Source: a phage
Assembly: GCA_037431425.1 (NCBI GenBank)
Contig: GCA_037431425.1_4129.1
Direction: 5' to 3' (one strand)
DNA: 64,000 bases
In this document: one piece after another, positions 26,956 through 27,459 of the stretch
Layout of the letters: every line of letters begins with the position of its first letter
Numbering within the stretch: position 1 is the stretch's first letter
Made by a program: the position numbers and the translations under genes
Notes under the pieces: model-generated
Told to the model about the DNA's origin: nothing
Seen by the model: only the letters and a program-made list of their open reading frames with translations
Databases searched by the model: none

Positions 26956-27459
26956 ATGAAATCTATTATTGCCAATAACGAAATCACCGCAAAAACTGTC
27001 CGTCTCGTAACGGAAGGAACCAGTGAGGTAATGGCAATCTCTAAAGCACTAACTTTGGCAGAAAATCAAGGTTTGGATTTGGTGGTTATCGGAACTGGCG
27101 ACGAGCCTGTTGTAAAAATTACCGATCTTAACAAATACAAATACGAATTGAAACAAGCGGAAAAAGCATCTCTTAAAAAACAGCGTCAGAATGCAATTAG
27201 TGTTAAAGAGATTCAATTCAATTTTGGTACACACGAACATGATTTGAAAATTAAAGCAAAAAGTGCAGAGAAATTCCTAGATGAAGGAAAGCATGTGCAT
27301 ATTGTGATGAAAACTTCAGGACGTGGAACGAATGCATCTGTAATTCAATCAAATATTAATGCAATGGAATCATTCGTTAATCGTTTGGGTAACGTTTCAT
27401 ATGTTCAAAAAGTAGAGTTCCAAGGTAAGAAGGTAACCTGTACTGTCAAAGTAAAATAA
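26956..27459 (+). CDS. infC: Translation initiation factor IF-3 homologue
   Basis: Collinear similarity to bacterial IF3 over N and C domains, e.g. [18 protein letters not shown] and [43 protein letters not shown]. Confidence 0.8.

Follow-up and report, generated by a model that had tools for sequence, protein, structure and literature searches.

Does a jumbo phage that encodes its own translation initiation factor IF3 possess a working initiation factor, and would such a factor inspect start codons in the manner of its bacterial counterpart? These questions are raised by an open reading frame (ORF) at positions 26956..27459 (+ strand) of contig GCA_037431425.1_4129.1, a stretch of phage DNA of 64,000 nucleotides (nt) that was analyzed in its full length and is referred to here as the window. 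The answer that we favor, with a probability of roughly 0.6, is that the ORF encodes a functional full-length IF3, which was vertically inherited from an ancient ancestor and supplements or replaces the IF3 of the host.

The ORF starts with ATG, encodes 167 amino acids (aa), and ends with a TAA stop codon that is followed by a second TAA. As evident from profile searches, the product contains both domains of the bacterial factor. The Pfam model IF3_N (PF05198) covered residues 7-71 (E value 3.7e-17, 62.7 bits versus a gathering cut-off of 26.9), and IF3_C (PF00707) covered residues 81-165 (E value 1.6e-13, 50.8 bits versus a gathering cut-off of 34.8). The NCBIfam model TIGR00168, the full-length infC equivalog, yielded 111.6 bits with an NCBI cut-off of 60. 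The ORF is thus a full-length two-domain IF3 homologue. An earlier note on this DNA had claimed a 167-aa IF3 homologue spanning both domains and had proposed profile searches as a check on family membership; all curated thresholds were exceeded, and the C-domain block quoted in that note was found at residues 82-124. Within the phage world the protein belongs to PHROG 9787 (E value 1.7e-70), a family of its own formed by the IF3 proteins of Rak2-like phages. Its best sequence relatives of solved structure were the IF3 proteins of Escherichia coli (8jsg_A, E value 3.3e-17), Thermus thermophilus, and Geobacillus, with E values from 3e-17 to 1e-16.

The predicted structure agreed with this assignment. 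A model calculated with AlphaFold2 (AF2) on the basis of 46 homologues had a mean predicted local distance difference test score (pLDDT) of 88.7 and contained four strands and one helix, a long helix (residues 58-79), and then a beta-alpha-beta-alpha-beta-beta succession, which is the order of elements in IF3. The N-terminal domain (26956..27126, + strand; residues 1-57) is acidic, with an isoelectric point (pI) of 4.6, and its helix 28-37 packs in the model with strands 14-19, 22-27, 41-46, and 52-56. The Lys-rich linker (27127..27195, + strand; residues 58-80) carries a net charge of +5 and is helical in the model. The C-terminal domain (27196..27456, + strand; residues 81-167), which by homology would be the 30S-binding domain, has a pI of 9.7, and its lowest pLDDT values fall in the loop after the GR motif (G122-R123). 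Foldseek retrieved full-length IF3 bound to 30S subunits as top matches, with template modeling (TM) scores of 0.71-0.75 (5lmn_X, 0.71; 9ss1_F3, 0.74). Structures of isolated IF3 domains were matched as well, with TM scores of 0.84 for 1tig (C-domain) and 0.77 for 1tif (N-domain). The phage protein therefore has in common with the bacterial factors (E. coli, 8jsg; T. thermophilus, 5lmn) the two-domain architecture, the Lys-rich helical linker, the predicted fold, the charge distribution, and nearly all conserved residues. The phage and E. coli proteins both have an overall pI of 9.5, composed of an acidic N-domain and a basic linker and C-domain. Unlike E. coli IF3, the phage protein lacks an N-terminal extension, and Arg is mostly replaced by Lys (22 Lys and 4 Arg, compared with 21 Lys and 15 Arg in E. 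coli).

Individual residues were compared in an alignment of 39 members of the Rak2-like clade (at least 50% identity), 148 distant homologues (<45% identity), and E. coli IF3. The window protein kept 44 of the 46 columns that were class-conserved in at least 80% of the distant homologues, and in this comparison the N-domain and the linker were conserved as well as the C-domain. The C-domain residues D96, K100, K102, K106, K119, G122, R123, and K158 were retained. D96, K100, and G122-R123 are equivalent to D106, K110, and G132-R133 of E. coli IF3, and K102, K106, K119, and K158 stand in place of R112, R116, R129, and R168. Lys is the commonest residue at E. coli positions 112, 116, and 129 among the distant homologues, and Lys at position 168 keeps the charge. 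C-domain arginines of IF3 were reportedly tied to 30S binding by Petrelli et al. in 2003. IF3-K110L is described as a non-binding mutant (PMC7145577). The earlier note had asked whether the ribosome-binding residues were conserved, and equivalents of K110, D106, and G132-R133 as well as positive charge at positions 112, 116, and 168 were all present. From this retention and the matching charge pattern we infer that the phage protein is very likely still able to bind the 30S subunit. In the linker, Y63 is equivalent to E. coli Y75, a column occupied by Tyr or Phe in 187/187 aligned homologues; the fidelity allele infC362 is Y75N (PMC7145577). In the N-domain, R16 and K54 align with E. coli R25 and R66, which contact the elbow of the initiator tRNA and affect start-codon fidelity (PMC9723500).

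By megablast and tblastn, the window was placed in the genus Asteriusvirus, which belongs to the Rak2-like jumbo phages (~350 kb). The nearest record is Escherichia phage ph0011, with DNA identity of 98.6% and an identical (100%) IF3. The IF3 proteins of 121Q, PBECO4, and about 20 others were ~95% identical to the window protein, that of RaK2 ~70%, and that of GAP32 ~58%. An IF3 homologue was found in 95 phage records, at a coverage of at least 80% in at least 88. A search of 1.8 billion representatives gave 5833 matches with E values of at most 1e-3 and only 6 with E values of at most 1e-30. The ratio of nonsynonymous to synonymous substitution rates (dN/dS) of the gene was 0.04 relative to 121Q and 0.16 relative to A4, with dS saturated in the latter comparison; the phage IF3 is under purifying selection. 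The gene lies in a conserved order of helicase, an ORF of ~190 aa, a 64-aa ORF, IF3, a ClpS-like protein, a KTSC-domain protein, and a structural protein. Synteny of the IF3 region extended over Asteriusvirus (ph0011, 121Q, and A4), Alcyoneusvirus (RaK2), Mimasvirus (GAP32), and Vibrio phage 2.275.O, whose IF3 has members of the Rak2-like clade among its best relatives. The low identity to the host protein, the dN/dS values, and the synteny thus indicate that the phage gene is old, has been inherited vertically, and is under selection. With E. coli IF3 the identity is no more than about 30-32%, for which reason an origin by recent capture from the host was rejected. The PHROG 9787 members, which include 121Q gp47, GAP32_313, CBB_318, RaK2 ORF153, Sharanji WNN14575, and ph0011 WAE77258, represent the same gene with the same neighbors and the same promoter position as in the window.

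That promoter is of the sigma-70 type, TTGACA-17-TATAAT, and lies at 26883..26911 (+ strand) with the -35 box at 26883-26888 and the -10 box at 26906-26911. It matches the consensus in 12/12 positions, is the only such match between 18 and 37 kb, and ends 44 nt upstream of the ATG. Its -35 box overlaps the TGA stop codon (26884-26886) of the upstream 64-aa ORF. Transcription is predicted to start near 26918, giving a 5' untranslated region (UTR) of ~38 nt that contains the Shine-Dalgarno sequence GGAG (26942..26945, + strand) 10 nt upstream of the ATG, invariant in an alignment of five relatives. The promoter is identical in ph0011 and 121Q. Promoter-like elements matching in 10-11/12 positions occur in A4 (TTGACA-17-TACAAT), RaK2 (TTTACT-17-TATAAT), and GAP32 (TTGACT-16-TACAAT), and they share the position 36-48 nt before the ATG although the DNA there cannot be aligned. 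Maintenance of the position despite unalignable DNA supports a function as promoter. The exact element that the earlier note had assigned to the gene is confirmed. The promoter is not, however, special to IF3. Allowing at most one mismatch to TTGACA-17-TATAAT, 15 sites were found in the window, five of them perfect and all on the + strand, the coding strand (2041, 10951, 26687, 26883, 37399, 43573, 44778, 45995, 50943, 53631, 55740, 60560, 61116, 62024, and 63523), versus 1.9 expected by chance; 0/100 shuffled sequences reached 15. Consensus sigma-70 promoters are therefore a general feature of this replication/nucleotide-metabolism block. A regulatory RNA or leader for IF3 was rejected as well: the window gave no Rfam match and no tRNA, and the predicted secondary structure of the IF3 5' UTR was no better than that of shuffled sequences (z = 0.36).

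Taking the protein for a functional IF3, the following course of events is proposed. The gene, situated within the replication/nucleotide-metabolism block, would most likely be read from its own promoter by host RNA polymerase carrying sigma-70. Host infC starts with AUU, which is the basis of IF3-dependent autorepression. The phage gene differs from it by an ATG start, found in 6/6 Rak2-like loci examined, and by the absence of the thrS-infC-rpmI-rplT context; its neighbors are the 64-aa ORF and the ClpS-like gene. Such differences are to be expected of a phage copy and concern regulation, not the definition of the protein family. Because of the AUG start, the phage copy should escape autorepression. 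The basic C-domain would bind to the platform of the host 30S subunit, and the N-domain would contact the initiator-tRNA elbow. Added to host IF3 or replacing it during a long infection, the phage protein would keep the subunits apart, recycle 30S subunits, and both speed and check the formation of initiation complexes. The beneficiaries would be phage mRNAs that start with AUG and possess a strong Shine-Dalgarno site.

Several points weigh against this proposal. The timing of expression is deduced only from the type of promoter and the gene neighborhood. The benefit of additional IF3 is uncertain, and an excess of IF3 can inhibit some initiation events. A literature search revealed no experimental report for any phage IF3, and the papers found only speculate. 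Finally, no basic residue occupies the positions of E. coli R99 and R131 in the clade, and the loop that follows the GR motif is extended, so that the phage factor may behave unlike host IF3 when start sites are inspected.

A requirement of the phage for unusual start codons was not apparent. In the ph0011 annotation of the matching 49 kb, 62/63 complete coding sequences have ATG as start codon and the remaining one has GTG, a count that depends on the gene caller used by the depositor. Nothing therefore indicates that relaxed rules for start codons are required by the phage, whose genes have the appearance of ideal substrates for approval by IF3, and a need for non-canonical starts was rejected. 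The earlier note had remarked that several genes seem to use GTG or TTG starts and had suspected an artefact of ORF calling. The suspicion was right and the apparent usage was not borne out: GTG and TTG starts appear in the ORF list because the first possible start codon was taken, and for the TTG listed at 26072, for example, the ph0011 annotation has an ATG start 30 nt downstream.

The two strongly conserved columns not kept by the window protein are those of E. coli K125, which is H115 in the window protein and Gln in most clade members, and of R/K131, which is S121 in the window protein and Val, Gln, Ala, Ser, or Ile across the clade. R/K131 is the sole clade-wide departure among the 46 columns: Arg or Lys occupies this position in 0/39 clade members versus 122/148 distant homologues. 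E. coli R99 is replaced by N89 (Thr, Ser, Asn, or Ala in the clade) and K97 by Q87, and none of the 39 clade members has a basic residue at position 97, 99, or 131. Position 99 is variable in cellular IF3, being basic in 75/148 distant homologues and Ser in Geobacillus, so that the start-codon arginines are not strictly diagnostic of the family. E. coli E134 is G124 in the window protein and Gly, Pro, or Ile in the clade, the acidic residue at or beside E. coli E159 is Gln or Val in the clade, and the loop that follows the GR motif has 3-4 additional residues.

The significance of these positions is apparent from T. thermophilus 30S pre-initiation complexes analyzed by cryo-electron microscopy (Hussain et al. 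2016; PMC5037330). There, Arg91 forms a hydrogen bond with A+1 of the AUG, Arg123 contacts the backbone of U+2 and, at a later stage, the base at +4, where Gly124 contacts the backbone, Arg159 in a beta-hairpin adjoins the codon and the anticodon stem-loop, and Glu151 approaches the D-loop of the tRNA. The T. thermophilus and E. coli numbering schemes were related by a HMMER alignment in which the number used in the paper equals the chain count plus 1, and this offset was checked on Arg36, Arg91, Lys93, Arg123, Gly124, and Arg125. T. thermophilus R91, R123, G124, R125, R159, and E151 correspond to R99, R131, G132, R133, R168, and E159 of E. coli and to N89, S121, G122, R123, K158, and Q151 or V150 of the window protein, respectively. 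Judged by these alignments, loss of the R99 and R131 equivalents is a real, clade-specific sequence feature of Rak2-like IF3, with the rest of the contacts kept, and it may be new as an observation. Together with the longer loop, it suggests that the phage IF3 may differ from host IF3 in the inspection of start sites. Thus, of the manipulation of start codons envisaged in the earlier note, the part that presupposed non-canonical starts did not hold (62/63 ATG), and a weaker form, altered inspection, may apply in view of the lost arginines.

These findings form the basis of the foremost alternative, namely that the protein is a specialized variant that binds 30S subunits and competes with host IF3 while its remodeled P-site-facing surface inspects start codon or mRNA differently. 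Relaxed discrimination, faster release, or faster joining of the 50S subunit could then bias initiation to phage messages. Apart from the complete absence of basic residues at positions 97, 99, and 131 in the clade and the identity of the lost residues as start-codon contacts in the T. thermophilus complexes, the changes at E134, the longer loop with its low pLDDT, and the replacement of the acidic residue that lies near the D-loop of the tRNA are in line with this idea. So is the related Vibrio jumbo phage, whose IF3 also has a lengthened post-GR loop and is encoded beside a gene for ribosomal protein S21. On the other hand, R99 is poorly conserved even in cellular IF3, K158 (R168) and R123 (R133) are kept, the start codons of the phage give no visible need for such a factor, and the genomic G+C content of 33% may account in part for the replacement of Arg by Lys and for other substitutions. 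Moreover, the basic residues are at least partly preserved in the IF3 proteins of other phages: those of Agrobacterium phage Atu_ph07 and of the 595-kb phage LR756511 are basic at both positions and that of LR756503 is basic at 97 only. We regard a specialized variant as possible though unlikely.

The same comparison served to reject loss of R99 and R131 as a general trait of phage IF3; it is not a general phage adaptation, since Atu_ph07, LR756511, and LR756503 keep basic residues. The IF3 proteins of these huge phages belong to lineages different from the Rak2-like clade, so acquisitions of IF3 by phages look independent. A narrower formulation would combine the Rak2-like and Vibrio proteins into a distinct "phage-type" IF3 that has kept binding to the 30S subunit and the tRNA elbow, has lost the side chains that grip the start codon and the D-loop acidic residue, and would compete with host IF3 and change the initiation checkpoint of infected cells. 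This proposal is rather unlikely. If true, the phage type would be a natural fidelity-altered initiation factor for host takeover, acting for example through faster commitment on phage mRNAs with AUG and Shine-Dalgarno sequences or through relaxed rejection.

A different emphasis is possible with respect to the step at which the protein acts. Anti-association and recycling are established roles of IF3, and the main task of the phage protein might be to mobilize ribosomes: in hosts that grow slowly or are in stationary phase, it would split 70S ribosomes that are vacant or hibernating, or keep their subunits apart, and so make 30S subunits available, with improved initiation on particular mRNAs as a secondary effect. 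The retained 30S-binding residues of the C-domain would serve this purpose, the adjacent genes encode a protease adaptor (ClpS-like) and a putative RNA-binding KTSC protein, and the related phage Sharanji encodes a protein of the S30EA/HPF family (PMC11895373). Sequence data cannot separate this explanation from a general-purpose IF3, and the parts of the protein concerned with fidelity, the N-domain and the linker, are as conserved as the C-domain, and we consider ribosome mobilization as the main job improbable. That the gene is a decaying or non-translational passenger, captured from a host without a role or reused outside ribosomes, has in its favor the label "hypothetical protein" in several GenBank records and is highly improbable in view of dN/dS values of 0.04-0.16, retention in at least 88 phage records (at least 80% coverage) from several genera with conserved synteny, two intact domains with 44/46 conserved columns, and a conserved promoter and ribosome-binding site. 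A functional full-length IF3 of ancient phage descent remains the reading that we prefer.

The presence of the gene is already known as an annotation, in Rak2-like phages since about 2012. It is annotated as IF3 in GenBank for ph0011, 121Q (gene 47), PBECO4, GAP32 (gene 313), CBB, Sharanji, and many others. Buttimer et al. (2017) reported IF-3 in CBB with homologs in GAP32, 121Q, PBECO4, and Rak2 (PMC5259590), phage IF3 is also discussed in PMC7824862, and Al-Shayeb et al. (2020) listed IF1 and IF3 among translation genes of huge phages (PMC7162821). According to the Sharanji paper, the function of IF3 in phages "cannot be definitively stated" (PMC11895373). With many annotated records and at least four papers, the finding is not new. 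It shares a theme with the translation genes of huge phages (IF1, IF3, S21, S1, and L7/L12), where parts of the initiation machinery were proposed to redirect host ribosomes (PMC7162821), and phage initiation factors are often cited as evidence for a reprogramming of host ribosomes by large phages. The residue pattern turns this notion into a concrete hypothesis, in which residues for binding, linker function, and the tRNA elbow are kept and the start-codon arginines are lost clade-wide. Because E. coli phages such as 121Q, PBECO4, and ph0011 can be cultivated and a full set of assays and mutants exists for E. coli IF3, the system is a convenient test case. The main value of the analysis thus lies in a correct public annotation and a testable residue-level hypothesis in a tractable phage-host pair.

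The IF3 gene is followed after 13 nt by the gene for the ClpS-like adaptor (27473..28018, + strand), and this pair is conserved in 121Q, A4, RaK2, and GAP32. The Pfam ClpS model scored 20.2 bits, below the gathering cut-off of 23, and PHROG 15940 matched with an E value of 1.8e-94. Since no terminator-like site was found on the + strand downstream of IF3 before 31924, IF3 and the ClpS-like gene are probably co-transcribed. BLASTP aligned the ClpS-like protein with E. coli ClpS at 28% identity over 87 aa, behind an N-terminal extension of ~70 aa. In this alignment, N34, D36, M40, and H66 of E. coli ClpS, which we take to be residues of the N-degron pocket, are replaced by Asp, Pro, Ala, and Asn, respectively. 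The conserved run IF3-ClpS-KTSC is completed by the gene for the KTSC-domain protein (29023..29568, + strand; Pfam KTSC, E value 4.4e-14). Between the ClpS-like and KTSC genes, the window carries a homing-endonuclease-like insertion of ~930 bp (28096-29030, + strand) with ORFs at 28103..28282 and 28245..29033. The encoded protein matched PHROG 559 "HNH endonuclease" (E value 5.5e-55) and PHROG 9084 "homing endonuclease" (E value 6.5e-29), with weak similarity to DUF723 and DUF2726. The gene seems to be split over two overlapping ORFs and may be frameshifted. The insertion was absent from ph0011 and all 36 related phage records, in which megablast matched the flanks only. It is what distinguishes the window phage from other Rak2-like phages at this locus, the IF3 gene itself not being substantively different.

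In Vibrio phage 2.275.O (MG592671, locus 2983-4786), the ribosomal protein S21 gene (RpsU3) lies between IF3 and the ClpS-like gene, and the annotated IF3 start is a TTG preceded by AAGGAG. In Agrobacterium phage Atu_ph07 (MF403008, locus 1673-3495), the IF3 gene is located directly downstream of a ClpX-like ATPase gene. The Atu_ph07 IF3 belongs to a different, more bacterial-like lineage with RPVT and RFKGRE motifs, and a Clp component thus adjoins IF3 in an independent jumbo-phage lineage too.

Two groups of database entries were noted in the course of the comparison. The IF3 of "Acinetobacter phage MD-2021a" (CAKLQH020000014.1) was rejected as a phage gene; the record contains thrS, infC, metabolic and transport genes, and then rpmI, and looks like a bacterial chromosome filed as phage. 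Rak2-like IF3 proteins labeled Escherichia coli and Salmonella enterica at NCBI are encoded on contigs of 359 kb and 371 kb, which are probably whole jumbo-phage genomes within bacterial assemblies.

Two minor features were seen around the IF3 promoter. A second near-consensus promoter, TTGACA-17-TATGAT (11/12; 26687-26715, + strand), precedes the IF3 promoter by 196 bp. The ATG of the 64-aa ORF (26692..26886) overlaps with the -35 box of this second promoter, and a transcript from it would start inside that ORF. An exact direct repeat of 15 nt, TACTATCGAACAACA, has one copy at 26912-26926, where the transcript is predicted to start, immediately downstream of the -10 box of the IF3 promoter, and the other at 27481-27495 in codons 4-8 of the ClpS-like gene. 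Both the window and ph0011 contain the repeat, which spans 13 nt in 121Q and is missing from A4, RaK2, and GAP32; it is possibly a product of chance or a lineage-specific quirk.

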